Below are positions 13,101 through 30,300 of a stretch of 37,261 nt of DNA, in pieces. Both the position numbers and the translations under genes were made by a program. This DNA is from Candidatus Stahliibacteriota bacterium. GTDB lineage: Bacteria; Hydrothermota; UBA3073. The notes beneath the pieces were generated by a model. That model had not been told where the DNA came from. It searched no databases and was given only the letters and a program-made list of their open reading frames with translations. The stretch spans positions 1-37,261 of the forward strand of contig DAOUSS010000003.1 in assembly GCA_030627085.1 (NCBI GenBank), given 5' to 3'. The first letter of the stretch is position 1. Each line of letters starts with the position of its first letter.

Positions 13101-13674
13101 ATTTAAGTTTTGTAAACCAGTCGGGATGTTCTTTCCACCATGGATGGTCTATATGAACATGATTGAGGACGAGGTCAAGCATAATTTTTATATCATGCTC
13201 GTGCGCTTTTTCTACAAGTTCCTTCAACTCCTTCATATTTCCAAATCTCGGTTCGATCTCTGTATGGCTTACAGGCCAATACCCATGATATCCCGTAAAC
13301 TTGTGGTGTGGAGGTAAGGCATCTCTGTATGCTCCCTCGGGTGCCTTATATACAGGAGATAACCAGATGGCACCTATTCCGAGTGATGTAAAATATCCAT
13401 CTTCTATCTTCTGGATTATACCTCTGAAATCTCCACCCAAAAAATTGCATCTCGCATCAAGTTCCGGGTCTTTTATGGGAGAATCGTTTGCTACATTCCC
13501 ATTTTTGAACCTATCAGTTAAGATACAGTATATTACTCTATCCTGCCAGGTGGTAACAGATTTGCACGATTTGAAATCGTGTTTACAATTATCTTGTAGG
13601 CACAAATTCAATTTGTGCCCATGATTATAATCTATGATAGATGTCAAAAAAATCAAAGGTATATACATTAGCAT
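10159..13674 (-). CDS. Multidomain amylolytic enzyme: GH13 + CBM48-like + GH57
   Basis: GH13 motifs YHGYW, DLVLNH, GARLDAVKH, FGE and FLGTHD. CBM48 motifs IAGEFNGW and YQYKFIVNGNWIPDP. GH57 motifs WHQHQP, WPSEG, MDGENAW and AEGSDWFWW. Confidence 0.9.
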   Translation of the reverse strand: MLMYIPLIFLTSIIDYNHGHKLNLCLQDNCKHDFKSCKSVTTWQDRVIYCILTDRFKNGNVANDSPIKDPELDARCNFLGGDFRGIIQKIEDGYFTSLGIGAIWLSPVYKAPEGAYRDALPPHHKFTGYHGYWPVSHTEIEPRFGNMKELKELVEKAHEHDIKIMLDLVLNHVHIDHPWWKEHPDWFTKLKLEDGRKNIRLFDEFPFTTWFDEFAPTLNHEKKEARQALIDTTIWLIKETGVDGARLDAVKHMPIVFWEEFRERLDKEVGKDFFLFGETISNRETIAAFIGDDLLNGQLDYPLYWTLRNVFSGKEGFFALDYALSESDRVYPKGSIMCPFLGTHDFSRFITYCKLEGDEKEVGWKGASPPTEESYKRLRLALTFLLTIKGAPVLLYGDEFGMPGAGDPDNRRMMKFEDELNEMEKETLQYVSRLLHIRNENSVIRRGREKRILLEKDIYVYLLEDGKDGVIVALNKSDRKRVLSIQAPGVWEEAITGNTIRAYERLVITLNPLEGDIFILRTGDVANIVAEEEGVSMKKVEFQLDAPDAKSVQIAGEFNGWSGTLMENDGNLWRISLDLLPGTYQYKFIVNGNWIPDPKNPDKSPDGFQGFNSVIVVGEGEKMTRPAELKRVGKPINLLIMWHQHQPRYFKDRKTGIYEKPWVRLHSTKDYYDMAAILEDYLNVHFTINLTPSLLLQILDEIDIYENGRPVDKCMQVTMKPAELLTKEDKEYILMNFFALNKENLIDPHPRYRELYEKRIIKNGEMDIEATLRNYSVEDFRDLQVWYNLAWFDPSFQKNEVELVTGKRITVRNLIEKKRDFTEEDKREVLDKGVEIMKAIVPLHKRLMDEGKIEVTTTPFYHPIIPLLYDTDLYHKKLPFRFSYPQDAAVQVKKSVDFYKKIFGKKPVGMWPSEGSVAKQIIPIFANKGVRWIATGEQILAKSLNREVSERDKYRPYRARFDKREVQIIFRDTRLSDDIGFRYNSMPGKAAANDLLGRLYEIHKRFKDTNEPVCVCIIMDGENAWETYKEDGKEFFHSFYSKIEEADWVKTLTVSEFLNENLPLHILNDLAAGSWINGNFDIWIGEDEENKAWEYLLRVRRDMERWDNIPEEVWEELYAAEGSDWFWWLGEDMETPEGDEKWDEMYRETLKNIYILSGRIPPNFLDKPIVK
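13564..13620. repeat. REP doublet inside the amylase coding sequence
   Basis: GCACGATTTGAAATCGTGTTTAC and GTAGGCACAAATTCAATTTGTGCCC match intergenic copies (e.g. 31240, 32328). Confidence 0.9.
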
Positions 13675-13749: not shown

Positions 13750-14949
13750 TTATTCCTCTTCGAGCAGTTTATTTACTTTTTCCGTTATTACAAATAGGGT
13801 TTCTTCTACGGAACGCTTGCCAGATAGAGCTGCTTCCATCTCTTGATTGACAACATTCTCTACTGCCGGGTAATCTGGTATAACAGGTCTCGGAACAGCG
13901 GTCTTCATCTGATGAAGAAAGGTCTCAAGATACGGATGTTTTATAATATCAACATCATCAAATGAGTTTACATTCACTGGAATCTGTCCCAGTTCGTTAG
14001 CCCATCTTATTTGATTTTCTTTGGAAACAAGAAATTTGAGGAAGTCAAAAGCAAGTTCTTTATCTTTTGTCCCTCTGAATATTACCATATTTGTTCCCCC
14101 TACTGTCGTAGCAGTCCCTGCTGGTCCCCTCGGTATCATACCAACACCAAAGTTTATACCTATGTTAAGGAGGGTTTTAATCCTCCAGGGGCCACTCAAT
14201 ACCATCGCGTACTTCTCATTCTGGAAGCCCATATCGGGCTCAACAGCACCCGCTTTCCATGCGCCTGCCTCTATCTTATACTTACTATAGAGGTCTACCT
14301 TGAACTGTAAACCCTCTACAGCTTCTTCCGTATTGAGAACACATTTCCCTTTGTCTATAAATCTTGCTCCAAATGTATAGAAGAATGGAAGTGTCCACCA
14401 TAATGTATTCCTCATACCAAATCCGAATATTTCTTTCTCTACGTCTGTGAGTTTTTCCCCGTAAGAAATAAATTCATCCCAAGTTGACGGCGGCTTCTCA
14501 GGGTCAAGTCCTGCCTCCTTAAAAAGCTTTTTGTTGTAAAAGAGACATATACAGTTTGTCTGGTCTGGTATACCATATATCTTGCCATCTATAATGTTTC
14601 CAGAGACAGCGGCAGGAACAAGTTCATCCACAAGTTCCCCTGCTCCAAATCCATCGAGAGCACATACCCCACCCCTCAATGCAAGTCTACTCACAAATGC
14701 ACAGTCCACCCTGGCTATATCAGGGGCTGTACGGGTTGCAAGTGCTGTGAGAACCTTTTGCTCTGTTCCATTAAAGGGTATTCTTTGAATCTCGACCTTT
14801 ATACCCTTTAGTTCCTCATAATTTTGGACAATCTCCGTGAATGTTCTATACTCCTCATCGTTATAACTCACCCAGATTGAGAGGCTACGAGCCAGAATTA
14901 TCTGGAATAATACTGTAACTATGAGAAAAACGGTAAAACTTTTCTTCAT
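13750..14949 (-). CDS. Sugar ABC transporter periplasmic solute-binding protein
   Basis: Signal peptide with no lipobox Cys; motifs APDIAR, DGKIYGIP, LFYNKKLFKEAGLDPEKPPSTWDEF and GPW. Confidence 0.9.
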   Translation of the reverse strand: MKKSFTVFLIVTVLFQIILARSLSIWVSYNDEEYRTFTEIVQNYEELKGIKVEIQRIPFNGTEQKVLTALATRTAPDIARVDCAFVSRLALRGGVCALDGFGAGELVDELVPAAVSGNIIDGKIYGIPDQTNCICLFYNKKLFKEAGLDPEKPPSTWDEFISYGEKLTDVEKEIFGFGMRNTLWWTLPFFYTFGARFIDKGKCVLNTEEAVEGLQFKVDLYSKYKIEAGAWKAGAVEPDMGFQNEKYAMVLSGPWRIKTLLNIGINFGVGMIPRGPAGTATTVGGTNMVIFRGTKDKELAFDFLKFLVSKENQIRWANELGQIPVNVNSFDDVDIIKHPYLETFLHQMKTAVPRPVIPDYPAVENVVNQEMEAALSGKRSVEETLFVITEKVNKLLEEE

Positions 14950-14967
14950 ATAATCCCCTTGTAAAAA

Positions 14968-15070
14968 ACCAAATCAAAATTATCAATTAGCAATTAACAT
15001 TTCAAAATTATTTCCCGCATTGCCTTTATCTTCCTCCATTGCTAATTGCTAATTTTACATTTTGAATTTT
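14968..15070. repeat. Gene-less inverted 7-mer array element
   Basis: caattag caattaa catttca ... ttgctaa ttgctaa ttttaca ttttgaa. Confidence 0.7.
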
Positions 15071-15074
15071 CAAA

Positions 15075-15881
15075 TTATCCCTTTATCGCTCCTTCTGTCA
15101 GACCGCGGATGAAGTATCTCTGCGTGAAGAGGAAGAGTATGGCTATCGGAAATATTGATATTGAAGATGCTGCCATCCTGAGTGTATAGAGTTCCTCATG
15201 AGCACTCCTGAACATAGCAAGACCAACAGGCACTGTATACATACTCTCTTTTGTGGTGACAATAAGTTGCCACAGGAAGTTATTCCAATGAAACTGAAAA
15301 CTCAATAAAAATACAGTTGCCACTATAGGCATCGAAAGCGGCAACACAACCCTTCTAATAACCCCAATCTCAGATGCTCCATCTATCCTTGATGCCTCAA
15401 TAAGCGATGTAGGTATTTGCCGTATAAACTGGGTGAGAAGAAACAATCCAAAAACATTTGCAAGATGTGGAACTACCATCGCCCTGTAAGTGTTTATCCA
15501 TCCCAATCTCGCAACGAGCACAAACTGGGGAATCATAAACATCATCCCCGGGACCATCATTGCAGAGAGAAAGAGTAGAAATAATCCATTCTTAAAAAAG
15601 AATCTTCGCTTTGCAAATGCATACGCTGCAAGGAGAGCAAAAAGGGTTGAAAATGTAGCTCCCAGTATAGCAACTATGAACGAATTGACAAAGTATTTAC
15701 TAAACCTGTACTGTGTAAGGACTAATTTGAAGTTATCTACCGTCGGGTTCTCCGGGATAATCTTCATAGAAAGACCACTTCCTAGAGGTTTGAAGGATGT
15801 TATAACCATCCAGAAAAACGGAAACAACACCACAAATGCAAGAACTATAAGGAAGATGTATATAAGTGCTTTTTTACCCAT
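15075..15881 (-). CDS. Carbohydrate ABC transporter permease (MalG-like)
   Basis: PFFWMVITSFK; EAA loop LIEASRIDGAS; WNNFLW; QRYFIRGLTEGAIKG. Confidence 0.92.
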   Translation of the reverse strand: MGKKALIYIFLIVLAFVVLFPFFWMVITSFKPLGSGLSMKIIPENPTVDNFKLVLTQYRFSKYFVNSFIVAILGATFSTLFALLAAYAFAKRRFFFKNGLFLLFLSAMMVPGMMFMIPQFVLVARLGWINTYRAMVVPHLANVFGLFLLTQFIRQIPTSLIEASRIDGASEIGVIRRVVLPLSMPIVATVFLLSFQFHWNNFLWQLIVTTKESMYTVPVGLAMFRSAHEELYTLRMAASSISIFPIAILFLFTQRYFIRGLTEGAIKG

Positions 15882-15884
15882 AAT

Positions 15885-16802
15885 TTATGTTTCCCTTAAA
15901 AGCCTCAGGCTTACAAGGGAGATAGCCATTGATATAAGAAGAAGAATAAAGGATATGGCAGCTGCATATCCAAGTTTCAAAGACTCAAAGTTTCTATAAA
16001 GATACATGCCTGTCACCCTGGTAGCGCCCACTATATTACCCTTGAAGTTGACCATTGGTCCCCCTCCTGTCATGCCGTAGAACTCGGCAAATGCAGATAA
16101 AGCTGCTATAGTGCCTATTATTACAAGAAATAAAATCACGGGCTTGATGAGAGGTATTGTTATATACCTGATTTTCTCAAAATTAGAAGCACCATCTATA
16201 GATGCTGCTTCAAAAAGGGATTGAGGTATATTATCCATAGCAGCGATAAAGAGAATCATTCCAAATCCAGCACCCTTAAGAGTCATAGCAATAACTATTG
16301 AAGGCATAGCAGTGGACGGAGTTGCAAGTGGAGGTGGAATCTTCAGGCCAATGAAATTGAATGCCCTCATAACCACTCCATAGGGACTTGAATATAGAAC
16401 TGTCCACACAATTGCAACTACAAATACATCAAGCACAAAAGGAAGAAAGAAACACGTCCTGAATATATTTCTACCTTTTATGTCCTTTCTCATAAGAAAT
16501 GCGAGAAGGAATGAGAATGCAATACCTATCGGGATTGATAGTATTGCATAATACAATGTCATAAGGAGTGCCCATCCAAATTCAACATCCTTGAAGAGTT
16601 TTATATAATTCCCCACACCTACAAGCTTCATACTACCAAAGACATCGTAGAGGTCAGTAACCTTGTGGAAACTGAGGATAAGTGAATAGACAATGGGATA
16701 GAGTAAAAAGATACAGAAGATTATAAGAAAAGGGAGTATAAGAGAATAGGATATAAGGCTCTCTCTTACTGAAACGGGATTGTTTTTAAATACTTTTTTC
16801 AT
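15885..16802 (-). CDS. Carbohydrate ABC transporter permease (MalF-like)
   Basis: LYPIVYSLILSF; EAA loop LFEAASIDGAS; ITIPLIKP; LGYAAAIS. Confidence 0.92.
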   Translation of the reverse strand: MKKVFKNNPVSVRESLISYSLILPFLIIFCIFLLYPIVYSLILSFHKVTDLYDVFGSMKLVGVGNYIKLFKDVEFGWALLMTLYYAILSIPIGIAFSFLLAFLMRKDIKGRNIFRTCFFLPFVLDVFVVAIVWTVLYSSPYGVVMRAFNFIGLKIPPPLATPSTAMPSIVIAMTLKGAGFGMILFIAAMDNIPQSLFEAASIDGASNFEKIRYITIPLIKPVILFLVIIGTIAALSAFAEFYGMTGGGPMVNFKGNIVGATRVTGMYLYRNFESLKLGYAAAISFILLLISMAISLVSLRLLRET

Positions 16803-16943: not shown

Positions 16944-16972
16944 ATTATATCATAAAAGAGGAAAGTTGTCAA
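16944..16972 (-). promoter_or_regulatory. Consensus promoter of the ABC/amylase/glgP/malQ arm
   Basis: Minus strand: TTGACA (16972-16967), 17-nt spacer, TG-n-TATAAT (16949-16944). Confidence 0.85.
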
Positions 16973-16980
16973 GAAAAAAC

Positions 16981-17009
16981 TTGACAAACCGCTGAAAATG
17001 TTGTATAAT
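16981..17009 (+). promoter_or_regulatory. Consensus promoter of the TonB-receptor arm
   Basis: TTGACA (16981-16986), 17-nt spacer, TATAAT (17004-17009). Confidence 0.85.
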
Positions 17010-17069: not shown

Positions 17070-19703
17070 GTGAGAAAATCTTTTCTTCTCTTTATACTTT
17101 TTCCTGTTGTATACCTCTTTGCAGGAACAACTGGAAAGATTACAGGGAGGGTAGTAGACCTGACAACTGGTGAACTCCTCCCTTTTGTTAATGTGGTCGT
17201 TGAGGGCACAAATCTTGGAGCTGCCACTGATATTGATGGGTATTATTTTATTCTAAATGTACCCCCGGGTGAGTATACGCTGTCTGCATCTATGATCGGT
17301 TACAATCGTATGAGAGTTGAGGGTGTCAGGGTGTCCTTTGATTTCACCAGCGTTTGCAACTTTGAGCTCACCCCGACCATTTTGGAGGGGGAAGAGATTG
17401 TGGTGGTTGCCGAACGAGAGATAATAAGACCTGACCTTACATCGAGCCTCGCCGTCGTCGGGGCCGACGATATCGAGACGATGCCCGTACAGAACTTCAG
17501 GGATGTATTAAATCTTCAAGCGGGCATCGTCAAGGGACATATAAGGGGTGGGAGGTCTGGAGAGGTTGCCTATCTCATAGATGGAATCTCCGTCACTGAC
17601 GCATATTCGGGTGACATAGCAGTGGAGGTGGATAACTCTGCTATACAGGAACTTCAGGTCGTGAGTGGTACATTCAATGCAGAATACGGTCAGGCAATGT
17701 CTGGTATAGTAAATATTGTGACGAAAGAGGGCAGCAGAAAGTACTCTGGTCAGGTATCATCATGGATCGGAGACTATCTCACAGCAGATGAAAATTTTAC
17801 AGGATTGAATAAGCTAAATATACTCCAGAATAAGAATCTGCAGAGTACCATCTCAGGCCCGCTTCCCTTCTTAAAGAAAAGAGGGTCGTTCTTTGTCACT
17901 ACAAGATATTACTACAGTGACGGATGGCTTTATGGAAAGAGAGAGTTTACGCCACAGGGAGAACCTGGTGACGATAAGGTAGTGCCTATGAATTTTTACA
18001 ATAAGATCTTTGCACAGGGAAAGTTATCCCTCCAGCTGAAAGAAAATATTGAGTTAAATTATTCATACTTTACAGATCATGCGAAATATAAGACATATGA
18101 CCACTATTTTAAGTATAATCCTGATGGAGACTTCAATAGATCTAAGTCAGGATATAACCATCAATTAACCTTCACCCATATGATAAGCCCAAAGACATTT
18201 TACACCCTGAATGCGGCAAGGTTTTACTCTGAATATAAACATTATGTATATGAAGACCCCTATGACCCAAGGTATGTTCATCCCGACCTTCTCACAGCAC
18301 CTGCGTACTCCTTTGCACAAGGAGGAACAAAAATGCAGAATTTCACAAGATGGAGTAAAACCACTGCGGGAAAGCTTGACATTACATCCCAAATTGGGTC
18401 GTCAAACGAGGTAAAAGGAGGCATAGAAACAAGGTTTCACAATCTATTCCTCCATGAATTTGATATAGTGCCAAAGCGCACTGAGACTGGAGAGATTGTG
18501 CCGTTTGAACCTGATATACCCGATATTACAGCTCCAAACCATAATAGATATAACAAAAAACCATACGAGTTGTCCTGTTACCTGCAGGATAAAATAGAAC
18601 TGAAGGATATGATAGTCAATCTTGGCATAAGGTATGACTACTTTGAACCCAATGGTGTTGTGCTTGCCGACCCATCCGACCCGAACATAAACGATCCCTG
18701 GAAGCCTGAACACAAGGATATGACACTTGAGGAAAGGGAAGAGATATGGTGGAAGAAGGCATCATCAAAAACCCAAATAAGCCCAAGATTTGGAGTGGCG
18801 TACCCTATTACAGACAGGGGTGTTATACACTTCTCATATGGTCACTTCCTTCAAATCCCTCCATTTGAATATCTCTATAAAAATCCGGAGTTCGAGGTGC
18901 CAAAAACCTCAGGCATAAGCACGATTTTGGGTAACACAGATCTCGATGCACAGCGCACTGTTATGTATGAAATAGGCCTACAGCAGGCATTTACCGATGA
19001 TATTGCAACTGATGTAACACTCTTCTATCGTGATATAAGAAACTGGGTAGGAACCTCTCCGGAGATAAACACAGTAATACCGGGAACAAAGTATGTCAAG
19101 TATATAAATAAGGACTATGCAAATGTAAGGGGAATAACATTCTCCCTTGACAAGTACCGAATAGATAAATTTGGAGTAAGTCTTGATTATACATACCAGA
19201 TAGCCGAAGGCACATCCTCAAATCCCGACGATGCATTCAATGACGCAAGAGCGGGAAGAGAGCCAAGAAAAGAGGTAATTCCTTTAAACTGGGATCAGAG
19301 CCATACCTTCAACCTCTCAATTCTCTTTGGAAACGCAGGACTTATATTCAGATACGGTTCTGGACTTCCATACACACCGTGGATCGTCCAGGGAACACGA
19401 GTTGGACGGACCCTTGCCACTGGATTGAAAGAAAACAGTGAACGCCGACCAACTACAATCACTGCTGATTTTAACTACAGCTATGATATAAAGATAGGAA
19501 AGTCCACAGTTTCGTTCATTATAAGAATTCTGAACATCTTTGATACCAGAAATGAAGAGGGAGTATTTACAGATACAGGAAGAGCAACTTACACATTAGA
19601 GGAACGTATAGCAGGTGCAGACGCCTCGCCCGAATGGTTCATACGACCCGATTTTTATTCAGAGCCAAGACAGATACAGGTGGGGATGTCGGTAAGGTTC
19701 TAA
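17070..19703 (+). CDS. TonB-dependent receptor with N-terminal carboxypeptidase-regulatory-like domain
   Basis: Signal peptide; GTTGKITGRV...GAATDIDGYY; plug motifs HIRGGR and GTFNAEYGQAMSGIVNIVTK; SPRFGVAYP; C-terminal Phe; RBS AAGGAGG. Confidence 0.92.
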   Translation: MRKSFLLFILFPVVYLFAGTTGKITGRVVDLTTGELLPFVNVVVEGTNLGAATDIDGYYFILNVPPGEYTLSASMIGYNRMRVEGVRVSFDFTSVCNFELTPTILEGEEIVVVAEREIIRPDLTSSLAVVGADDIETMPVQNFRDVLNLQAGIVKGHIRGGRSGEVAYLIDGISVTDAYSGDIAVEVDNSAIQELQVVSGTFNAEYGQAMSGIVNIVTKEGSRKYSGQVSSWIGDYLTADENFTGLNKLNILQNKNLQSTISGPLPFLKKRGSFFVTTRYYYSDGWLYGKREFTPQGEPGDDKVVPMNFYNKIFAQGKLSLQLKENIELNYSYFTDHAKYKTYDHYFKYNPDGDFNRSKSGYNHQLTFTHMISPKTFYTLNAARFYSEYKHYVYEDPYDPRYVHPDLLTAPAYSFAQGGTKMQNFTRWSKTTAGKLDITSQIGSSNEVKGGIETRFHNLFLHEFDIVPKRTETGEIVPFEPDIPDITAPNHNRYNKKPYELSCYLQDKIELKDMIVNLGIRYDYFEPNGVVLADPSDPNINDPWKPEHKDMTLEEREEIWWKKASSKTQISPRFGVAYPITDRGVIHFSYGHFLQIPPFEYLYKNPEFEVPKTSGISTILGNTDLDAQRTVMYEIGLQQAFTDDIATDVTLFYRDIRNWVGTSPEINTVIPGTKYVKYINKDYANVRGITFSLDKYRIDKFGVSLDYTYQIAEGTSSNPDDAFNDARAGREPRKEVIPLNWDQSHTFNLSILFGNAGLIFRYGSGLPYTPWIVQGTRVGRTLATGLKENSERRPTTITADFNYSYDIKIGKSTVSFIIRILNIFDTRNEEGVFTDTGRATYTLEERIAGADASPEWFIRPDFYSEPRQIQVGMSVRF

Positions 19704-19705
19704 AC

Positions 19706-19792
19706 ATAGTTGAATAGTTAATTAGTTGATTAGTTAATTAGTTGATTAGTTGAATGATTGTTTTGGAAATGCTAACAAACTTACCAACTAAA
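19706..19792. repeat. Inverted 8-mer array element (TAGTTRAT type)
   Basis: tagttgaa tagttaat tagttgat tagttaat tagttgat tagttgaa ... aacaaact taccaact aaac. Confidence 0.75.
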
Positions 19793-19807
19793 CACATTGG
19801 GGGGAAG

Positions 19808-22800
19808 ATGAAAAGATATATGATTTTTGCTTTTCTGCTCCTTTATTACTGTCTCTTTGCCCAGACAGGCTCCTTTGAAGAGAGGAAAAAAGGAGTTCAC
19901 TCGGGCAATCAGGTAAGAACCACATTCTTCAACTATGGTTTAATAGGTAGGATATCTACTGCAGAGGATTTTGGTGGGGAATGGCCAATAAACTCCGGAC
20001 ATGAGTATATCGGCGATGTGAGTGTACTTGTCGGTGCTGAGGTCCCCATAACCATACGGGTGATAGATACAATTATTGGCACAGACACACTTTACCGCGA
20101 CAGTACAGCAATCATATATTCTGTTGAAGTATCGGATGGTCCGAGGGGTAACAATGAATATTCTCCTGATGGAACTACATTCTGGGGCTGGGAACCAATC
20201 GGTGGTTATGCAAATCCTGATACAGACCTCATTGCAGTGAGCCATATAAGGGAATCCTGGCCACCATACTGGCCTGACAGAATGAATGAGATAGATGACC
20301 CCGGATGGTCGGGTGCCTGGAATGGATACTTTGGTAAGAATCAGATGAATGCAGACCAGGAAAGTTACTTTGTTATGGACGACAATACTGATGAGGAGTT
20401 CTCATTTTATCCGGATTCTACGGATTCAACAAGAAGGGGTCTCGGGCTCCGGGTTGGCGTCAGGGGATTTCAGTGGTCCCATCCACTTGCTCAGGATTGT
20501 ATATTCTGGCATTACGACATAACAAATCTGGGTACATCTACCCTGAACAAAGTGGTTTTTGGAATGATAGTTGGAACCATAACAGGAGGAGATGGTGATA
20601 CACAGGATGACTGTGCAGATTTTATAAAAGAAGAAAATATAACATATTCGTATGATTGGGATGGTGTTGGCGCAGGAGGATGGTACCCTGTTGGATACGC
20701 AGGTTATGCCTTCTTAGAGAGTCCAGGAGACCCGTATAACGGTTTGGATGATGATGGAGATGGAGCGGATGGACCTGGGCCAGTTTTAACATTACAGGAT
20801 TTTGAGCCAAAGGTATACGCTGTTGGCGACGATATAGTTCTTATAGATTACAACACACTTGAAAGGACTGTTACCACGATGCCGGATACCGGAATACTCA
20901 TCTATTTTCGAGGAGACACTCTCAGAATACACCCAGGAGAAACACTTGTAGAAAATTCCCATAACCGCATGGACGATAACCTCAATGGCTTGATAGATGA
21001 AAACTCTGACATACATTTGAAATATACTTGCAAATATAAAAACTGGATAACAGGAGAGGGTCTTGACAATCTCCTGATAGACGAGTCAAGAGATGATGGA
21101 ATTGATAATGATGGAGACTGGGATCCTATGACTGACGACGTGGGCGCAGACGGATGTCCAGGAACAGGGGATACGGGAGAGGGAGATGGAATCCCTACAC
21201 CGGGAGAACCAAACTTTGACGCCACAGACAAAGACGAGTCTGACCAGATAGGCCTCACATCATTTTACTTCTTTCACCCGTTTAACAAAGTGAAACTAAG
21301 AAATGACGAACAGTTATGGAGTTGTATGAAACCAGGGTATTTTAACGCTACAGAGCAGAATGTGGATGGTGATTTCATATATGGCTCTGGATATTTTTCC
21401 CTCAAGCCGGGGCAGACAGAAAGATTCTCTATGGCACTCCTTTTCGGGGATAATGCTGACGCCATTGTAAGAACAAAACAGACCGTTCAGCAGATATACA
21501 ACTGGAATTACAGGTTTGCAAAGGCGCCGGATCTACCAACTCTTAGGGCAGTTCCCGGTGATAAAATGGTAACATTATACTGGAACGATAGGGCTGAATA
21601 TTCTTTTGACCCGATGACGGGCTACGATTTTGAAGGTTATAAGATATATCGTGCAACCTGGCCAACGTGGGACGATGCAGGTGAGATTACCGATGGTTTT
21701 GGTATTGCGAAGTTCAATGTTCCAATCGCCCAGTTTGACCTTAAAGATAGCATTGTGGGGTTTTTTCCTCAGGGTATGGATGGAATTCAATTCTATCTTG
21801 GAGATGATACAGGACTTCAGCACTCATTTGTGGATTCGACTGTCCAGAATGGACAGACATACTTCTATGCCGTCACCGCATACGACAGAGGAGATACAGT
21901 GCAAAGTATTACACCCTCTGAAACATCAAAGTTCGCTACGATAGACCAGGCAGGACAGGTAATTACTGGTATAAATGTGGTTGCCGTTACTCCTGAGGCG
22001 CCCGCTGCTGGATATGTACCCCCATCTTTAGAAGAATTTGAACATCTCTCTGGGTTTGCTACAGGAAAGGCCGAAGTAGAAGTCATTGACCCGAAGGATG
22101 TAAGGGATGGACATACATATCAGATCACTTTCAATGACTCTGCTTTTGTTACTAAATTTTTCACACTTGTAGATATCACAGAACTCTATAATCCGGATAC
22201 CCTTATTAAAGATTCCCCGGAGGTGGAACCCTGGGAAGAGAGAGATATCTGTCACGGACTAAGACTATATCTTGATAATGACCAATATATATCAGTAATT
22301 GACAGCGTATCAGGATGGAATGATACAACTCTCCTTCCCGTGGAGAATATAACTACCCTCGTAACTCCTGCGTATCAGGGCAAGAGATATCCTGCAGATT
22401 ATGCTATAATATTCGGAGAGGGGATAATGGATACATCTATTCATCTCCAGGTTGGTTATCCATATCCTCTAAATCTCCCTGCAGTACCTGTAAACTTCAC
22501 TATTGTAAACACGAATACTGGAAACAGCGTGGAATTTGCGCTTCATGAAAAAAGCGGAACCGTTGATTCAACCATATCCCCCGAAGAGAGAATAATATTC
22601 TTACAGGAAATAGAACCAGATACATCCCTCACTCCAACATGGATTATCAAATTCAGTAAAGATACCCTCGCAACTATTCCAGGGGAAGGTGATACACTTT
22701 ATATATGCACCACAAAACCCTTCTTATCAAGTGATGTATATGAATTTACTGTTAAGGGAGCATCTATTGATAGAGAACAGGCAAAGTTCGACCTTGAGAA

Positions 22801-23107
22801 GATAAAAGTGGTACCAAATCCCTATATTGCTGCCGCCACCTGGGAGAAACACAATCCCTATACAACCGGTAGGGGACCGAGAGAACTCCATTTTATTCAT
22901 TTGCCTGCAAAGTGCACTATAAGGATTTATAATGTAAGGGGAGAACTTATCCAGAAGATAGAGCATGAATCTGAACTGAATGATGGAACTTGCAGGTGGA
23001 ATATGCTGACAAAGGATAACCTGGATATTTCTTATGGTGTATACTTCTATCACATTGACGCTCCGGGAATTGGAGAAAAGACAGGCAAGTTTGCAGTGAT
23101 AAAATGA
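19808..23107 (+). CDS. Large secreted acidic protein with DxDxDG-type Ca-binding motifs, an FN3-like segment and a variant T9SS-type C-terminal domain
   Basis: Signal MKRYMIFAFLLLYYCLFA; motifs GLDDDGDG, DDNLNGLIDE and GIDNDGDW; DFEGYKIYR...YFYAVTAYD; C-terminus IKVVPNPY...TIRIYNVRGE...GVYFYHI...KFAVIK. Confidence 0.75.
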   Translation: MKRYMIFAFLLLYYCLFAQTGSFEERKKGVHSGNQVRTTFFNYGLIGRISTAEDFGGEWPINSGHEYIGDVSVLVGAEVPITIRVIDTIIGTDTLYRDSTAIIYSVEVSDGPRGNNEYSPDGTTFWGWEPIGGYANPDTDLIAVSHIRESWPPYWPDRMNEIDDPGWSGAWNGYFGKNQMNADQESYFVMDDNTDEEFSFYPDSTDSTRRGLGLRVGVRGFQWSHPLAQDCIFWHYDITNLGTSTLNKVVFGMIVGTITGGDGDTQDDCADFIKEENITYSYDWDGVGAGGWYPVGYAGYAFLESPGDPYNGLDDDGDGADGPGPVLTLQDFEPKVYAVGDDIVLIDYNTLERTVTTMPDTGILIYFRGDTLRIHPGETLVENSHNRMDDNLNGLIDENSDIHLKYTCKYKNWITGEGLDNLLIDESRDDGIDNDGDWDPMTDDVGADGCPGTGDTGEGDGIPTPGEPNFDATDKDESDQIGLTSFYFFHPFNKVKLRNDEQLWSCMKPGYFNATEQNVDGDFIYGSGYFSLKPGQTERFSMALLFGDNADAIVRTKQTVQQIYNWNYRFAKAPDLPTLRAVPGDKMVTLYWNDRAEYSFDPMTGYDFEGYKIYRATWPTWDDAGEITDGFGIAKFNVPIAQFDLKDSIVGFFPQGMDGIQFYLGDDTGLQHSFVDSTVQNGQTYFYAVTAYDRGDTVQSITPSETSKFATIDQAGQVITGINVVAVTPEAPAAGYVPPSLEEFEHLSGFATGKAEVEVIDPKDVRDGHTYQITFNDSAFVTKFFTLVDITELYNPDTLIKDSPEVEPWEERDICHGLRLYLDNDQYISVIDSVSGWNDTTLLPVENITTLVTPAYQGKRYPADYAIIFGEGIMDTSIHLQVGYPYPLNLPAVPVNFTIVNTNTGNSVEFALHEKSGTVDSTISPEERIIFLQEIEPDTSLTPTWIIKFSKDTLATIPGEGDTLYICTTKPFLSSDVYEFTVKGASIDREQAKFDLEKIKVVPNPYIAAATWEKHNPYTTGRGPRELHFIHLPAKCTIRIYNVRGELIQKIEHESELNDGTCRWNMLTKDNLDISYGVYFYHIDAPGIGEKTGKFAVIK

Positions 23108-23130
23108 AACTATGCATGGATGAACACAAC

Positions 23131-23342
23131 AAAATTTCAAAATCCGAATTTCTAATTTCCAATGAAAATCCAAATGCCATAACACAGATTACACAGATAA
23201 AAACATAGATAACACTGATTTATTTCACAATCTGTGTAATCCAATCAAATCTGTGCCATCTGTGTTTTGGAAATTTAGACATTCTCCAATAATCTCGTGT
23301 AATCTTGTGGTTTCAAAATTTTTGCATTTTGATATTTGATTT
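23131..23342. repeat. Nested 7-mer and 9-mer inverted arrays
   Basis: 7-mer arm 23131-23178; aacacagat tacacagat...atctgtgcc atctgtgtt at 23181-23266; 7-mer complementary arm; cttgtggtt; tttgcattttgatatttgattt. Confidence 0.7.
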
Positions 23343-23359
23343 AACTTTTTGGGGGTGCT

Positions 23360-24364
23360 ATGCGTAAATTTATTTTTGGGCTTATTATTATAGCTACCGT
23401 TCTGTACGGGGGTGTCACCAAAGTTGGCACGACTGCTGCCTCCTTTCTTACAATACCTGTGGGACCGAGAGCACTTGGAATGGGCGGTGCGTTTGTCTCG
23501 GTTGCAGATGATGCTACTGCTATGTTCTGGAATGTTGCAGGCATCGGAAGGCTTAAAAAAAATGAGATAGTTCTTGTTCACACAAACTGGCTTTTGGATA
23601 CATACTTTGAATACGCTGGAGTAGTAATTCCAGTCCCAAACTACGGCACCTTGGGTGTAAATTTTACACATATGAATCTTGGAGAGATGGAACAGACAAC
23701 AGAGCAGGATCCTGATGGGAATGGATTAAAATTTTCTTGCGGCAGTTTCGCAATTGGCCTTTCCTATGCAAGGGCGCTTACAGACAGGTTCGCCATAGGA
23801 TTCAATGCAAAGTATATACAGGAGAGTATAATGAACTGTGGAGCAACGGGATTTGCTATTGATGTGGGCACTTTATTCAGGACACAGTTTAAGGATGCAA
23901 GATTGGGTATGAGTATCTCAAACTTCGGAACGAAGATGCAAATAATGGGAAATGATCTGCTTGTCCAACACGATATAGACCCGGGGCTTGCGGGGAACAA
24001 TCCATATGTAAATGCTTTTCTCGCAACGGGAAGGTTTGACCTCCCTCTAATTTTAAGGGTTGGTATGTCTATTGACTTAATAAACACGCCTCAGAACCGT
24101 CTTACACTATCCTGTGATGCCCTTCACCCAAACGATAATACCGAATCAGTGAACATTGGTACTGAATATGTATTTAACAACTTACTATCTCTGAGAGCGG
24201 GCTATAAAGCAATGTATAAAGTGGACTCTGAAGAGGGATTTACCCTCGGTGCAGGACTTTTTACTAATATTGGTAAAGTGGTGAGATTGAAGGTTGATTA
24301 CGCATATGAATTATTTGGAAGACTAAATAATGTGCAGAAGCTCGCTATAGCTTTGGAATTCTAA
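23360..24364 (+). CDS. PorV/PorQ-family (UPF0164-like) outer membrane beta-barrel
   Basis: TTAASFLTIPVGPRALGMGGA, ADDATAMFWNVAG, LSLRAGY, VDYAY; C-terminal Phe. Confidence 0.88.
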   Translation: MRKFIFGLIIIATVLYGGVTKVGTTAASFLTIPVGPRALGMGGAFVSVADDATAMFWNVAGIGRLKKNEIVLVHTNWLLDTYFEYAGVVIPVPNYGTLGVNFTHMNLGEMEQTTEQDPDGNGLKFSCGSFAIGLSYARALTDRFAIGFNAKYIQESIMNCGATGFAIDVGTLFRTQFKDARLGMSISNFGTKMQIMGNDLLVQHDIDPGLAGNNPYVNAFLATGRFDLPLILRVGMSIDLINTPQNRLTLSCDALHPNDNTESVNIGTEYVFNNLLSLRAGYKAMYKVDSEEGFTLGAGLFTNIGKVVRLKVDYAYELFGRLNNVQKLAIALEF

Positions 24365-24450
24365 TACTCGTATTTTTACAATCACGATCTTTTTATAAGT
24401 ATATACAAACTTATCGTAGATAACCACTGGCTTGTCTTAACAGAACCCTT

Positions 24451-24611
24451 GCAGGCACAAATTCAATTTGTGCCTGCACGATTTGAATTCGTGCCTATAT
24501 TCACCGTGTGAAGAATAAGATTCAGATTGTTATTATTTCGTTTTTTTTCCTATTAATGTAAGGCAAACCTTTAGGTTTGCTTACATATGCAAGGCTGACG
24601 CCTTGCCCTAC
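24451..24611. repeat. Cluster of four REP palindromes
   Basis: GCAGGCACAAATTCAATTTGTGCCTGC; GCACGATTTGAATTCGTGCC; GTAAGGCAAACCTTTAGGTTTGCTTAC; GCAAGGCTGACGCCTTGCCCTAC. Confidence 0.85.
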
Positions 24612-24683
24612 AATATTGGTGTAGACTAACTGATATCCTGTCTCTCATGCGGGGTGCTTAGATAGTGAGATTTTATTTTTTTC

Positions 24684-24712
24684 TTGACAAAATGATGTTT
24701 TTGTGATATATT
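24684..24712 (+). promoter_or_regulatory. sigma70 promoter with extended -10
   Basis: TTGACA (24684-24689), 17-nt spacer, TG-n-TATATT (24707-24712). Confidence 0.7.
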
Positions 24713-24780
24713 ATACAGTAGGATAAATATGAAGGGAGGTAATGCGAAAAGAGAATAGATAAATGATAGGTCTAATTGAC

Positions 24781-25022
24781 AGAGTTCTAATAGGGCTTCA
24801 CAAAACTAAAGGTCATTGAAATCTGCGGTGTTATGGAATTCCTTGCGAGACAACGGATTACGATAGCACTCATTTCTAGGGAACTTGGCTGAATTTTGCT
24901 TCAAATTCATAACGCATTGATACGCAAGGACTTACAAGGTGGAGGTGAAATCAAAAAGCAGGCTGCTTGTAATCCTATAAATAGCAAGGGATTACGAATT
25001 TTGTGAAAGGCAAGAGTTCTAA
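24781..25022. mobile_element. MITE-like element with 10-bp flanking direct repeat
   Basis: AGAGTTCTAA at 24781-24790 and 25013-25022; imperfect terminal inverted repeats with core TTCACAAAA/TTTTGTGAA; no ORF. Confidence 0.7.
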
Positions 25023-25119
25023 AGAAAGGAGGTGGTAGAGATAAATTGGGGGTTATAACCCAGCGTTGTGTTCAGCGTTTTTGTTGCAGTAGTTATTAGT
25101 TATATAGAAAGGAGGTTGT

Positions 25120-27192
25120 ATGGCAAGGAAATTGGGTGTTGCACTCATCGTCTTGCTTATTGCAGGTATGGGATTTGCCCAGAATGAGGTTACATTCAAT
25201 GTGAATATGAGCGTGCAAGCTATTATGGGGACATTTAATCCCGCAACGGATACAGTCGTGGTAAGGGGAGGTACTGCACCCCTTGCCTGGGATGGGTATG
25301 ATAATCTTCTTACAGACCCCGAGGGTGACAGCATTTATACGATAACCCTTGATTTTGGAACTGAAACAGGCACTGTGGAGTATAAGTATGTGATGAAGCC
25401 CGCAGGTGGGAGTGATGTTTGGGAGAGTGTACCCAACCGTACATTTGAACTTACTGGTAGTCCACTGGTTCTTGATACGGTCTATTTCAGTGACCAGGCA
25501 GGAGTTCCTGTTGAGGGAACTGTCATCTTCCAGGTAGATATGAGGGTACAGGAGGCGGTCGGTAATTTCACCCCGGGTGTGGACCACATCACCCTTCGTG
25601 GCTCGCCGCCCCCACTTGATTGGGCAGAGACCCCTGACCTTGAAATGGAACCCTGGGATACTATGTATACCAAATCAATTACATTCAATATGCCAAGACA
25701 CTCAACCATAGAATACAAATATAATCTCGTGCCTGCGGCAGATTGGGGTAATGATAATGTCTATGACGGAACATGGGAATCTGGTGACAACAGGGTAGTA
25801 GACTACGACCCGGATGAATCAGGCTATCAGATAGTTCCTCTAAGATACTTTAATGATATAGGTCCTGAAGACATCATTCTGCAGGAAGTGATAGCAATAT
25901 TCAAGGTGGACCTAAGATATGTATTCTATGCTATTGCAGAACAGGGATACTGGTATGCAGAGGGTGCACTGGATACTGTCTACAGCGTGGATAGTATGTA
26001 CATCGCAGGCGGAACTTCTCCACTACAATGGGTATGGGATCAGCCAGCTTATCCACCTGAGCTACAGATGAAGGACGATGGCGCATATCCAGATGAGATT
26101 GCTGGAGATAGTATCTACACAGTTTTTATCACTTTCCCCGTGGGTACTTCAAAGCGCATAGAACATAAGTACGGTGTCAATGGCTTAGATACTGAGCTTG
26201 GTTTTGCCCAGAACCACTTTATCACCATGAGTGATGCTGAAGCCATCTTTCATGTACCACTTGAACTTTTCGGTTCACTCATATGGGCAATCGCTGCCAA
26301 TGATGATGAGAATGGTGTATCCTTACAGGATGGAGAGGTCGTTGTTGGGAAAGGTGTTGTCACAGTTGCAAACGAATTTGGAGGTCCCAGCTACATTCAG
26401 GATTTTGCAGCTGGTATCGCAGTCTATGATGCTACATTTACCGGCTCTGTGAGTGTCGGCAATGAGGTCAAATTCAGTGGAACTGTCAGTAACTACCGTG
26501 GATTAACGGAACTTACAGACATTGCCTCGCTTGATGTCTTGAATGAAAGCGTTCCATATGACACACTCCTTATAACCTGCGCTGACTTAGCGGATACGGT
26601 GGGTGAACAATATGAGGGAAGATTGGTTAAGATAGAGAATGTTACAACAACGGATGCTTTCCCGGATGCGGGACAGAACGCGAATATAACTATCACAGAT
26701 GCCACTGGAAGTTGCACTATGAGAATAGATAAGGATACGGATATTGATGGAACCACTGCACCAACAGAATCCTTCGATGTAGTAGGAGTTGTGACACAAT
26801 ACGACTCAGACTCGCCCTACTGGAGTGGATACCAGATTATGCCTCGCACCCTTGGAGATATCCTTGTTGGAATAGAAGAGGAAGAGGGGAGTCCTAAGGT
26901 CTACGCACTCTCTCAGAATTATCCAAATCCTTTCAGTTCTGGAACAATAATTAAGTACCAGTTAGCAAAGAGCGGAAAGGTTAGCATAGGTATTTATAAC
27001 CTCTTGGGAGAGAGGATAGCCACGCTGGTGGATGAACCGCAGAAAGCAGGATACTACAACGCTTACTGGAACGGAAAGGATAGTAAAGGCAATAAGATCG
27101 CCTCTGGTATCTACTTCTGCAGAATGGAAGTAAAGACAGAATCTGGAAATTCCAGTTTCACAAGAACGAGGAAACTCGTGATGTTTAAGTAG
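25120..27192 (+). CDS. Secreted non-catalytic protein: tandem CBM20-like modules, Ca-loop domain, OB-fold-like pair, T9SS-type CTD
   Basis: Repeated VTFNVNM/VIFQVDM...RG...W...EYKY; MKDDGAYPDEIAGDSIYT; YEGRLVKIENV; YQIMPR; LSQNYPNPF...WNGKD...SGIYFCRM; RBS AAGGAGG. Confidence 0.75.
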   Translation: MARKLGVALIVLLIAGMGFAQNEVTFNVNMSVQAIMGTFNPATDTVVVRGGTAPLAWDGYDNLLTDPEGDSIYTITLDFGTETGTVEYKYVMKPAGGSDVWESVPNRTFELTGSPLVLDTVYFSDQAGVPVEGTVIFQVDMRVQEAVGNFTPGVDHITLRGSPPPLDWAETPDLEMEPWDTMYTKSITFNMPRHSTIEYKYNLVPAADWGNDNVYDGTWESGDNRVVDYDPDESGYQIVPLRYFNDIGPEDIILQEVIAIFKVDLRYVFYAIAEQGYWYAEGALDTVYSVDSMYIAGGTSPLQWVWDQPAYPPELQMKDDGAYPDEIAGDSIYTVFITFPVGTSKRIEHKYGVNGLDTELGFAQNHFITMSDAEAIFHVPLELFGSLIWAIAANDDENGVSLQDGEVVVGKGVVTVANEFGGPSYIQDFAAGIAVYDATFTGSVSVGNEVKFSGTVSNYRGLTELTDIASLDVLNESVPYDTLLITCADLADTVGEQYEGRLVKIENVTTTDAFPDAGQNANITITDATGSCTMRIDKDTDIDGTTAPTESFDVVGVVTQYDSDSPYWSGYQIMPRTLGDILVGIEEEEGSPKVYALSQNYPNPFSSGTIIKYQLAKSGKVSIGIYNLLGERIATLVDEPQKAGYYNAYWNGKDSKGNKIASGIYFCRMEVKTESGNSSFTRTRKLVMFK

Positions 27193-27381: not shown

Positions 27382-30300
27382 ATGAAAAATTTCCTGTTTA
27401 TTATTATACTTTTTGCCCTTCCCCTGCTTTCTCAGAATCAGGCGTGGTGGGAACCGGAGAATCCCTCTCCGGGAGATTCTGTAACAATATATTATAACAC
27501 AAGACTGGGAACACTGCCTGAGAATAGTGACTGGATAAAGCTCCACTGGGGCGTAAATGGATGGACACTTCCTTCAGAGAGTCTGTGGCCACCGAATACT
27601 ACCCCATGGGAAGATAGCTGTGCCGTTGAATCCCCTATGATACCGGAAGACGACACAATATGGACCATACCACTCACAACTAACGAGATCGTTGAAACAA
27701 TAGATTTTTGCTTTCATGGTAATACTGATTGGGATAACAACTCCGGAGCAGATTGGCATATATATTTAGGTGAACTCCCAGCGATAATCCCCGTAAGATT
27801 TATTCTGGATACCCGTAGCTGTAATTTTTCATATACAGGCTCATCTATAACCGGGGTAAACCTCGCAGGCTCATTCAACGGATGGTCCACTACCGCAATG
27901 CCTATGACACAGACGGAGAACCCATATATATGGGAGAGATGGGTTGATCTTTATGAAGGAACGTACGAATATAAATTTGTGATAAATGGCCATGTATGGG
28001 TCCCTGACCCCGACAATCCACGCTACACAGGTGAATTCCAGAATGCAGTTGTTATAGTGAAAAAGGATATATGCCCAAAGATAGATATTGAATCTCCACG
28101 ATGTGGGTCTGTATTTTATGATACCACATCTATAGATGTAATAGCAATTGTGAAAAAGGGAGATGATGGAATACCGATAGACGAATCATCTATTATAGTA
28201 ATAATCGACAACGATTCCCTATCTTACCTCTTTGACCCTGACAGTCTTATCATCACAGCAAATGCATCTGGACTCTCATACGGCCTTCATCTAATTTCTG
28301 TATCTTTATCGGATACGGCAGGCAATGCTACAGAGAAAACATCCTCCTTCGGAATATACCCATCAGGGAGCGGATATCATGCCATTGACGCATTCTATGA
28401 TGAAAACTACTTATACCCGGATTATGTTGCAGATGGCACATGCGATATAAAGGATCTTAACATAAAAAAGAATGCCGATTCACTTAAATTCACAGTTTTC
28501 ATCAGAAATCTTTCAGAGTATACGAAACTCGCTATGCAGATATCAACTATGGATGTAGCACCTATGGTTGAAACTTCACTCCCATTGGAAATAAAAACAA
28601 GGGAATGGAATGGCAGTGGTGTCTTCCTTACAGTTATAGATCCATCTTCACCATCTTTTAATCCTTCTTTTGATAACAGAATCTATATTCAAAGGTATCC
28701 ACCAGCGCTGGGTGACTCTATAGATGTAACTGTATCAGGTGATAGCCTTATCTTTAATATCTCTGTCTCACTCCTTGAGAGTATTCTCGGCAGTTACAAT
28801 GTTCCCTGGTATTTTTACCTATTCTCATTCATTCCTGATTTTGAGCCCGACTCATCTGTTGCTGGGAACGACCTTATTATAGACCCTGATATATACGATG
28901 CAGTCTTTTTTGAAACTAAAGACCTTGAAGATAAACTCCTTGCAAATTACATACCTGATGGGTCTTTGGGTGGTCCAAGAATGGCATCACTTGATGGCGT
29001 TGGAAGGGGTATTGGAAAGATAGAGGCATACGATATAGACAGCTCGCTCTTCAACCCAGGTCCTGTTGTAAGACTTCTGACCCGTAGCGGGGTTGTATAT
29101 GACTCTATATACCCAGTTGACGGAACAATAAGTGATGCTGATATAAATGAGGCAATTCTCACCATAAATGGGATAGACACAACAATATCCGTATCTTCAG
29201 GATTTTTCTCCGTCCCGATAAGGCTTGTAGAAGGTGATAATATAATATCATGCAGGGCAGAAAATAACGAAGGAGTTGGCTCTTCTCCGTCAATAAATCT
29301 TGAACTTTTTGTAGACCATACGCCAAAGGCAGTCATTGATACGGTGTATCTTGAGAGCAATAATATCTATGTCAATGGAAGTACAAGTTATGACCCTGAT
29401 GGCAATGAACTTACATATCTCTGGTTTCAAGATAGCCTTAATCCGCAGGAGATAATATTCAGCATCCCAAATTCTGCGATAACATCCTTTTCGGTACCAT
29501 CTGTGAATGGAGAATACTACTTTAATCTTATGGTGGAAGACCCTGACGGAAATCGGGATTTTGCCAGAAGTTTCATAACCGTGAGAGATGGGGATGTAAG
29601 CATCGCAGGAACAGATAGTATCGCAGATTGGATAAGAAATGCGATTGTCTATGAGATCTTTCTGCAGTCGTTCAGTGATAAAGGGAATTTTAGGGGGGTG
29701 AGTGAAAAAATCTCCCAAATTAAGGACCTCGGGGTAAACTGCATCTGGTTTATGCCGATAAATCCAAGCACATATACAAATGGCTACTCTGTCACAGACT
29801 ATTATGGCATAAGGACGGATTACGGCACAGAGGAAGATCTCAAGGAACTACTTACGCTTTGCACGGAAAATGGTATAAAAGTAATAATTGACCATGTCGT
29901 AAATCACTGCTCAAATCAACATCCCTGGATGGTAGATGCACAGTGTTTTGGAGAATATTCCCACTTCTATAATAATTTTATGTGGGATGCAGGCGGAAAT
30001 TACCATTACACGGCAGGTGCCGATTTGCCTGATTTGAACTATGGTAATGAACATCTAAAGGAATATCTTCTTGATATGGCAGAATACTGGCTCACCGAAT
30101 TTGACATATACGGGTTCAGGTGTGATATGGCGTGGGCAGTGGAGCAAAGAGACAATACATACTGGAGGCTATGGAGGAAGAGGCTTAAATCCAAAAAGCC
30201 CGAGGTGTTTTTGCTTGCAGAGGCGACTTCAACAGATTTTACATATTTTCAGTCAAGATTTGATGCAGCCTATGATTGGAACCTTCATCACGAGTCACCT

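Follow-up and report, generated by a model that had tools for sequence, protein, structure and literature searches.

Glycan uptake across the outer membrane is known mainly through the SusC/SusD systems of the Bacteroidota. Related lineages from sediments, the subsurface and the ocean also degrade polysaccharides, and their uptake machinery is poorly known. We have analyzed a stretch of 37,261 nucleotides from a Candidatus Stahliibacteriota bacterium (GenBank assembly GCA_030627085.1, contig DAOUSS010000003.1, positions 1 to 37,261 of the forward strand; hereafter the window), in which an alpha-glucan locus contains three consecutive genes, encoding a TonB-dependent transporter, a large secreted protein and an outer-membrane barrel of the PorV/PorQ family. 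This trio is a real and strictly syntenic module. We regard it as one copy, linked to alpha-glucans, of an outer-membrane module that is widespread yet unannotated in relatives of the Bacteroidota and that may fill the role of the SusC/SusD sugar-uptake pair. The account that we favour, with moderate confidence, is that the large protein is exported by means of its tail and kept on its own barrel beside the transporter, where it would serve the capture of alpha-glucan oligosaccharides.

The locus resembles the Bacteroides starch system (SusC/SusD with SusE/F and SusG) in that a TonB-dependent transporter with a CarboxypepD_reg-like N-terminal domain adjoins a surface partner, and in that the same locus continues with a starch-binding CBM20 surface protein and a GH13 amylase of the cell surface. 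It differs in the partner, which is an all-beta protein of about 1100 residues instead of the alpha-helical SusD lipoprotein, in a transporter that stays far under the SusC/RagA cut-off, and in a genome without a match to SusD_RagB. Moreover, type IX secretion system (T9SS) tails take the place of lipid anchors, and the barrel constitutes a third core gene.

The pairing of a barrel with a tail-bearing protein has its own precedents. According to the sections of PMC10202324 on the known PorZ/PorQ and PorU/PorV pairs, the tails stay on the barrels, and PorZ retains its tail and binds PorQ. Likewise, the trio pairs a protein that has a type A-like tail, closest to that of PorZ, with a barrel of the PorV/PorQ family. 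Unlike those pairs, the barrel scores under the equivalog cut-offs, the body of the cargo consists of supersandwich and FN3 domains, and the pair is multi-copy in the source genome, always beside a TonB-dependent transporter. The same gene logic, a variant-tail cargo with a co-encoded barrel, is found for type B cargo and PorP/SprF; the corresponding passages of PMC10202324 describe clusters of variant-tail genes with their own PorV-like barrel, which was proposed as anchor. A first-pass annotation of the window, made from its sequence, had drawn this parallel. The variant tail stands, and the parallel does not extend to a type B tail or a PorP/SprF barrel: the tail is type A-like, the CHU_C model (PF13585) reaches 16.9 bits on the large protein against a threshold of 27, and no PorP/SprF family is among the matches of the barrel, which belongs to the PorV/PorQ family. 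Finally, in the Bacteroidota BAM complex the surface protein BamH is kept next to BamA by BamG, a FadL-like barrel (PMC12578637, in the part concerned with these proteins). In that complex a FadL/PorV-like barrel, itself docked on a larger one, grips a big extracellular protein by its loops. That machine is a different one, its proteins are unrelated to the trio as far as tested, and docking on the transporter is conjectural here.

The genes and domains of the trio are as follows.

17070-19703, plus strand: TonB-dependent transporter gene (877 residues)
19754-23107, plus strand: open reading frame (ORF) of the large secreted protein (1117 residues; from M19, 19808-23107, 1099 residues)
19862-21517, plus strand: N-terminal beta-supersandwich domain, a galactose-mutarotase-like, glycoside-hydrolase-type fold (residues ~19-570 counted from M19)
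20747-21253, plus strand: Asp/Gly-rich acidic loops DDDGDG, DDNLNG and DNDGDWD, inserted in the N-terminal domain (motifs, invariant columns)
21530-22012, plus strand: FN3 domain with insertion (segment model; FN3 matches with Z 8-9 over 84-93 aligned residues)
22013-22762, plus strand: two further beta-rich domains, the least conserved part of the family (alignment, segment model)
22772-23104, plus strand: C-terminal domain, namely a T9SS tail of divergent type A that bears a family-specific insert (hhalign, structure match)
23360-24364, plus strand: PorV/PorQ-family outer-membrane barrel gene (334 residues)

What the first-pass annotation had observed on these genes was confirmed throughout, namely the reading frames, the tail, the motifs, the barrel and the SusD-free setting.

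The order of the three genes is kept far outside the window. We have compared 80 loci from species-representative genomes, picked by likeness to the large protein. The transporter gene lies directly upstream of the large-protein gene in 66/66 evaluable loci from several phyla, and a barrel gene is found at most 600 nt downstream of it in 67/68; the median spacers are 45.5 nt between transporter and large protein and 72 nt between large protein and barrel. The triad, noticed in a single sequence, is a conserved one by these numbers. In two loci, L051 and L055, the transporter is followed by two successive pairs of large protein and barrel. In addition, the order recurs among the paralogues of the source genome itself, where each of the six full-length transporter paralogues that could be evaluated is succeeded by a barrel, by a large-protein paralogue or by the two together. 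Such constancy over several phyla, with short spacers and with recurrence within one genome, argues against the explanation that the three genes adjoin while each has a role of its own, such as an adhesin and its anchor beside an unrelated importer. That explanation can appeal to the fact that we infer the physical link of the large protein and the barrel to the transporter, and we consider it very improbable.

The family of the large protein is sizeable. A word-indexed search, in which 8000 candidates were scored, gave 3261 related proteins at E<=0.001; among the 120 matches listed none has a Pfam domain, and every name given by the source is "hypothetical protein". A full profile search covering 1.84 billion cluster representatives (clusters at 50% identity) retrieved 1536 clusters at E<=1e-30; relaxing the cut-off to E<=1e-10 raised the number to 4931, and E<=0.001 gave 9136, a figure that probably includes generic matches to tails or FN3 domains. 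The closest relatives of the large protein (75-96% identity) are labelled candidate division WOR-3.

The genomic context of the trio is an alpha-glucan locus. Its principal neighbours are given below.

13750-16802, minus strand: sugar ATP-binding cassette (ABC) importer, consisting of a binding protein and two permeases, divergently transcribed (associated context)
25120-27192, plus strand: surface protein of 690 residues that combines CBM20 and DUF5689 with a type A tail of the ordinary kind (domain matches)
27382-31233, plus strand: GH13 alpha-amylase of 1283 residues that has CBM48-type modules and, likewise, an ordinary type A tail (domain matches)

The alpha-glucan genes upstream of the trio, on the opposite strand, comprise the ABC sugar transporter, GH57 and GH13, GH77 and a phosphorylase-like gene. 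The GH13 domain, CBM48 and the GH57 domain are united in one protein of 1171 residues (10159-13674, minus strand). To see how general the setting is, we refer to the first ORFs downstream of the barrel in the related loci, of which 55 out of 57 were scanned for domains (two were left out): Por_Secre_tail occurs in 42, CBM20 in 36, AMPK1_CBM in 14, DUF5689 in 12, CBM48 in 9 and Pullulanase X25 in 7. Homologues of the alpha-glucan genes of the window are present in the flanks of 40 of the 50 related loci that span at least 13 kb, and a homologue of the CBM20 protein in 37 of these 50. On the basis of these downstream domain counts and flanking homologues, the orthologue group to which the large protein of the window belongs is starch-linked. 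The first-pass annotation had placed the trio within an alpha-glucan locus and had taken the starch context as a pointer to its substrate; the former agrees with the GH13, CBM20, GH57, GH77 and ABC-importer neighbours, and the latter holds for this orthologue group (40/50 loci; CBM20 in 36/55). The recognisable starch binder of the locus is the CBM20 protein and not the large protein, which is thus left with the SusD-like place in a Sus-like gene order. Elsewhere in the genome, on contig C10 (L086, 2025-3725), a protein of 567 residues in which CBM20 and a type A tail accompany a purple-acid-phosphatase-type metallophosphoesterase is encoded directly downstream of a second large-protein/barrel pair; it could be a starch-bound phosphatase.

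The neighbouring genes also bear on the explanation that the large protein and the barrel serve to assemble or stabilize the transporter, in the manner of BamG/BamH or of PorZ/PorQ in the T9SS attachment complex, and do not handle substrate. In 38/58 related loci (e.g. L026 1328-3019) the transporter is immediately preceded, on its own strand, by a gene for a peptidyl-prolyl isomerase (PPIase) of about 560 residues, SurA-like in a few cases. Moreover, BamG/BamH provide a precedent (the part of PMC12578637 referred to above), the periplasmic domain of YidC has the supersandwich fold as well (Z 12.7), and one transporter paralogue of the source genome, on C164, is accompanied by a barrel without a large protein. 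The trio of the window, on the other hand, has no PPIase gene adjoining it, and the fact that the orthologue group follows one substrate class fits substrate handling better than generic assembly. We therefore hold a pure assembly function to be quite unlikely, and return to the favoured account of an oligosaccharide-capturing protein beside the transporter.

The large protein itself likely starts at position 19808 and counts 1099 residues, because its homologues begin at M19 and the upstream ATG (19754) falls within an 8-nt tandem repeat. The protein of about 1100 residues downstream of the receptor that had been described before is thereby retained, with an ORF of 1117 residues and a likely product of 1099. 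No Pfam family reaches its threshold on the protein and no NCBIfam family matches; there is no match to the SusD families, and a profile search of PDB sequences with the family returned 0 matches at E<=1. The DxDxDG motifs noticed earlier are real though few, as the sequence contains a single strict DxDxDG at residue 332 and a single DxNxNG at residue 407 versus 0.22 expected in shuffled sequences. The positions of the acidic motifs are invariant across 65 homologues (D/G/E columns), and the loops that contain them are candidate calcium sites.

The predicted structure offers more. The AlphaFold2 model of the large protein, built on an alignment of 65 sequences, has a predicted local distance difference test score (pLDDT) of 81.2 and a predicted template-modelling score (pTM) of 0.70 and is almost wholly beta; besides the signal peptide it contains seven short helices, the longest of 17 residues. 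Confidence is low near residues 430-480, within the acidic-loop insertion, and a second model covering residues 575-990 has a pLDDT of 94. Since SusD is alpha-helical and the model is almost all beta, the large protein is, as judged from this model, not a SusD homologue. In a structure search independent of Foldseek the N-terminal domain was best matched by dextran dextrinase (9ju0, Z 19.9, root-mean-square deviation (rmsd) 3.1, 257 residues aligned), followed by glucodextranase (1ulv, Z 19.2) and glucoamylase (1lf6, Z 19.0), whereas the N-terminal domains of GH116, GH94 and GH65 enzymes gave Z 15-18. The likeness to the N-terminal domains of GH15 glucoamylase and glucodextranase, GH65 and GH94 thus extends over 230-277 residues at Z 15-20, with the top matches coming from alpha-glucan enzymes. 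The differences from these enzymes are the acidic loops inserted in the domain, the lack of a match at the sequence level, and the absence from the model of the (alpha/alpha)6 catalytic domain that succeeds the supersandwich fold in GH15/GH65/GH94-type enzymes. For residues 736-985 we obtained weak FlgL-like structure matches (Z 9.2 and 8.4) and nothing better. A Foldseek search of the whole model against the PDB retrieved generic Ig/FN3 strings only, at a template-modelling score of 0.1 or less, and an ESM Atlas search with residues 19-600 retrieved uncharacterised clusters only. Taken as a prediction, the fold fits carbohydrate handling and falls short of proof of binding.

The same domain could be read as that of a surface enzyme of an unrecognised family, glycan-modifying, lyase-type or mutarotase-type, which prepares the substrate for the transporter. 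The supersandwich is catalytic in aldose 1-epimerases, which the N-terminal domain resembles on fold alone, without a Pfam match (Z 11.7-13.3), some lyase and GH174 entries score Z 12-14, and numerous columns of the domain hold an invariant D, E, H, R, W or Y. Nevertheless, the top matches (Z 15-20) are the non-catalytic N-terminal domains of GH15, GH65, GH94 and GH116 enzymes, the (alpha/alpha)6 catalytic domain is missing from a nearly helix-free model, and no Pfam, NCBIfam or PDB sequence match was found; we consider an enzyme unlikely. This is in line with the first-pass annotation, which had called the protein non-catalytic-looking and distinct from SusD, and the all-beta model without the catalytic domain of its fold relatives fits the non-enzymatic protein of the favoured account.

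The transporter has a signal peptide, a CarboxypepD_reg-like N-terminal domain (CarbopepD_reg_2), a Plug domain and an OMP_b-brl_4 barrel. It remains below the SusC/RagA family model TIGR04056, with 65.6 bits versus a cut-off of 368.25 and with coverage of the N-terminal part only. The source genome assembly (1.93 Mb in 347 contigs, 94.5% complete) contains no match to SusD_RagB, where the control was matched in Bacteroides thetaiotaomicron. The description of the system as SusD-free therefore applies to the source genome, whereas the trio is not confined to such genomes: three of the five carrier genomes tested do have SusD-family genes. As for secretion, SprA_N matches above its cut-off on a frame of 1750 residues, PorU-like sequences are present as pieces only, and the genome encodes 14 PorV_fam barrels over the cut-off and 67 ORFs with a T9SS-type tail.

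The tail of the large protein, VVPNPY...KFAVIK, differs from the QNYPNPF tails of the two genes downstream of the barrel, a contrast noted at first sight and upheld here; both of these match Por_Secre_tail, and the large protein does not (PF18962 / TIGR04183). It carries a family-specific insert of about 14 residues (WEPxNPYxxGRGPRELHF). When a profile of 121 family tails was compared by hhalign with one built on 32 type A tails of the ordinary kind encoded in this genome, the two aligned over 98 columns with 98.1% probability and an E-value of 1.3e-13. In the model the tail is closest to that of PorZ (5m11_A, Z 12.0, rmsd 2.1, 92 residues aligned, 27% identity). Because of this homology and this fold match, the tail is best assigned, on sequence profile and model, to a divergent, PorZ-like type A and not to type B. 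Tails of the family type are found on seven or eight of the 67 tail-bearing ORFs, and roughly 59 are ordinary. Of the six evaluable ORFs with a family-type tail in the source genome, five are followed by a barrel of the PorV family. A further protein of 972 residues (L084, contig C277, 3298-6213) resembles the large protein in its N-terminal region (75.5 bits, residues 16-326) but bears a type A tail of the ordinary kind; as the contig stops 160 nt past its gene, the presence of a barrel is not evaluable there.

The barrel was assigned to the PorV/PorQ family from the start, and indeed reaches 222.8 bits on PorV_fam (NF033709) against a cut-off of 90. It remains below the equivalogs for PorV (NF033710, 89.5 versus 250) and PorQ (NF033711, 102.3 versus 220). 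Its four NCBIfam matches are PorV_fam, PorQ, PorV and PorV2, with no PorP/SprF family among them in a library that presumably contains a PorP/SprF model. The top barrels of the genome on the PorV and PorQ models are those on C22 and C20, respectively, and neither is the barrel of the window. A complex of barrel residues 18-334 with tail residues 960-1099 was predicted alongside three controls, with alignments built in this analysis. The interaction score (ipSAE) was 0.91, 0.88 and 0.91 versus 0.00 for the best control, at least 90% of the contacts agreed between the runs, and the partner pLDDT was at least 72; the pass mark is one that 58/80 solved complexes and 2/110 mismatched pairs meet. 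Moreover, invariant residues are enriched in the predicted interface, both on the barrel (10/27 versus 4.3 expected, p 0.004) and on the tail (10/21 versus 6.3 expected, p 0.05). The prediction thus supports binding of the tail to the barrel.

The predicted binding leaves room for a barrel that is a private shuttle only, bringing the large protein from the translocon, with the tail being cleaved afterwards and the large protein released or attached to lipopolysaccharide like ordinary type A cargo. The tail is homologous to cleavable type A tails, PorU-like sequences occur in the genome, and the predicted binding mode does not distinguish a shuttle from an anchor. However, the barrel on C22 is a better general PorV candidate and could serve the roughly 59 ordinary tails, and the fact that a separate barrel paralogue is kept beside large-protein paralogues would point to a lasting partner. 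We regard the shuttle as improbable and retention on the barrel, as in the favoured account, as the better description. In a tree of the barrels, made by a quick method and with long branches, four of the five barrels beside large-protein paralogues group with the orthologues (Shimodaira-Hasegawa-like approximate likelihood ratio test, SH-aLRT, 86) and the fifth (C89) groups with those of C22 and C24 (support 85); this tree is too weak for a claim of co-evolution of tail and barrel.

The favoured account would work in the following way. The secreted GH13 amylase and the CBM20 protein would act on starch at the cell surface. The large protein, made with a Sec signal peptide, would pass the outer membrane by virtue of its T9SS-type tail, and this tail would remain on the dedicated PorV/PorQ-family barrel, as that of PorZ does on PorQ, and in doing so tether the protein next to the transporter; the binding is a predicted one. 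The beta-supersandwich domain, whose fold is typical of proteins that handle carbohydrates, would take malto-oligosaccharides and hand them to the TonB-dependent transporter, after which the pathway would be completed by the ABC importer together with the GH57/GH13, GH77 and phosphorylase-like enzymes of the cytoplasm. The first-pass annotation had gone further and proposed that the barrel, as a private export or anchor partner, holds the large protein as a lid on the receptor. In its full form this would be one stable machine, with the barrel docked on the side of the transporter and the large protein lying over its mouth as a glycan-capturing lid. The geometry that such a lid needs is that of BamG-BamH, and we hold the idea to be tentative and less likely than not. 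If true, it would represent a second, independently evolved lidded TonB-dependent glycan importer, serving many substrates in several phyla and anchored by a secretion-system tail and a private barrel and not by a lipid.

Several observations weigh against the favoured account. That the tail is retained, that the large protein binds glycans and that it touches the transporter at all are things that we infer. No carbohydrate-binding module is recognised in the large protein by Pfam or NCBIfam, and the fold is the one feature that points to glycan binding. The predicted binding of tail and barrel suits a shuttle as well as an anchor, the pass of the complex prediction may mirror likeness to solved T9SS complexes, and the family-specific tail insert lies outside the predicted interface and is modelled with low confidence. 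The 80 loci are not independent, as they were selected by likeness and about half of them are from Balneolaceae. The sole exception to the barrel rule is found in the closest related genome (L001 5983-13715), where the transporter is followed by a large protein (1109 residues), a paralogue of 949 residues and then a single barrel, and the pairing is therefore not one-to-one. On C164 (L085, 547-4342) the gene next to a transporter paralogue is that of a PorV-family barrel, with no large protein in between, and on C236 (L081, 1560-3534) a family-type tail is followed by an ORF of 440 residues that has no Pfam family and is not PorV-like. Hence the "private" partner proposed earlier stands insofar as the barrel is a separate paralogue with predicted tail binding, and does not stand in the strict sense in view of the two large proteins with one barrel in L001 and the barrel without a large protein on C164. 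The distribution of the trio is patchy, since with this query the large protein was found in 12/81 sampled genomes of its own phylum while orthologues with 45-60% identity occur in other phyla. Finally, searches of the 94.5%-complete genome for GldK and GldM gave no match, where one of the GldM searches was uninformative (its control remained unmatched), and the secretion system of the source genome may be reduced or very divergent.

In the literature no description of the trio was found, as judged from titles and the starts of abstracts, with subscription journals and supplements lying outside the search. A 2026 review on glycoside transporters (PMC13543919) does not contain, in the text covered by a term search, the terms 'PorV', 'type IX', 'Ignavibacteri', 'Marinimicrobia' or 'Fibrobacter'. 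In Melioribacter roseus the genes Mros0761-0759 were named SusC, SusD and SusE within a starch operon (PMC3534657, in the passage on that operon). They may be this trio or else genuine SusC/SusD/SusE, considering that PULDB reports true susCD tandems in Ignavibacteriae (PMC5753385). An unnamed family of at least 1536 clusters at 50% identity, encoded between a transporter and a barrel, is a strong candidate for the missing surface component of glycan uptake in these lineages. If the favoured account holds, thousands of "hypothetical" genes would obtain a role, loci of this kind would become predictable in genomes where SusD-based searches fail, and type IX tails with PorV-family barrels would have a new use as permanent anchors of nutrient-uptake parts.

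The remaining features of the locus concern promoters, repeats and spacers.

16944-17009, both strands: divergent sigma-70-type promoter pair, TTGACA-17-TATAAT on each strand (12/12 consensus matches per strand)
19707-19761, plus strand: about six 8-nt tandem units TAGTTGAW, each with a stop codon, filling the spacer between transporter and large protein
23172-23275: inverted repeat with 27-nt arms, 81% complementary, in the 252-nt spacer between large protein and barrel (no terminator-like site called)
24684-24712: strong promoter match before the CBM20 gene, about 400 nt upstream of its start codon (consensus match only)

One of the divergent promoter matches points toward the trio and the other toward the ABC-transporter operon, and their -35 boxes lie within a palindrome (16966-16987). 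All promoter assignments are consensus matches. No terminator-like site was called inside the trio, and Rfam at gathering thresholds found nothing in the window. The 755 nt between the barrel and the CBM20 gene (24365-25119) accordingly have no Rfam match, hold no ORF of at least 100 residues, and contain a perfect palindrome of 14 nt (24450-24478). Six copies of another palindrome, of 19 nt (GCACGA-N7-TCGTGC), are present in the window (13564, 13726, 16856, 24476, 31240 and 32969), before both plus-strand operons among other places. It was considered as an operator of a starch regulon, an idea that we rejected because the element is dispersed over the genome, with 50 copies (at most one mismatch) in 1.93 Mb, often just downstream of genes; in sequence it looks like a dispersed REP-like or hairpin element.

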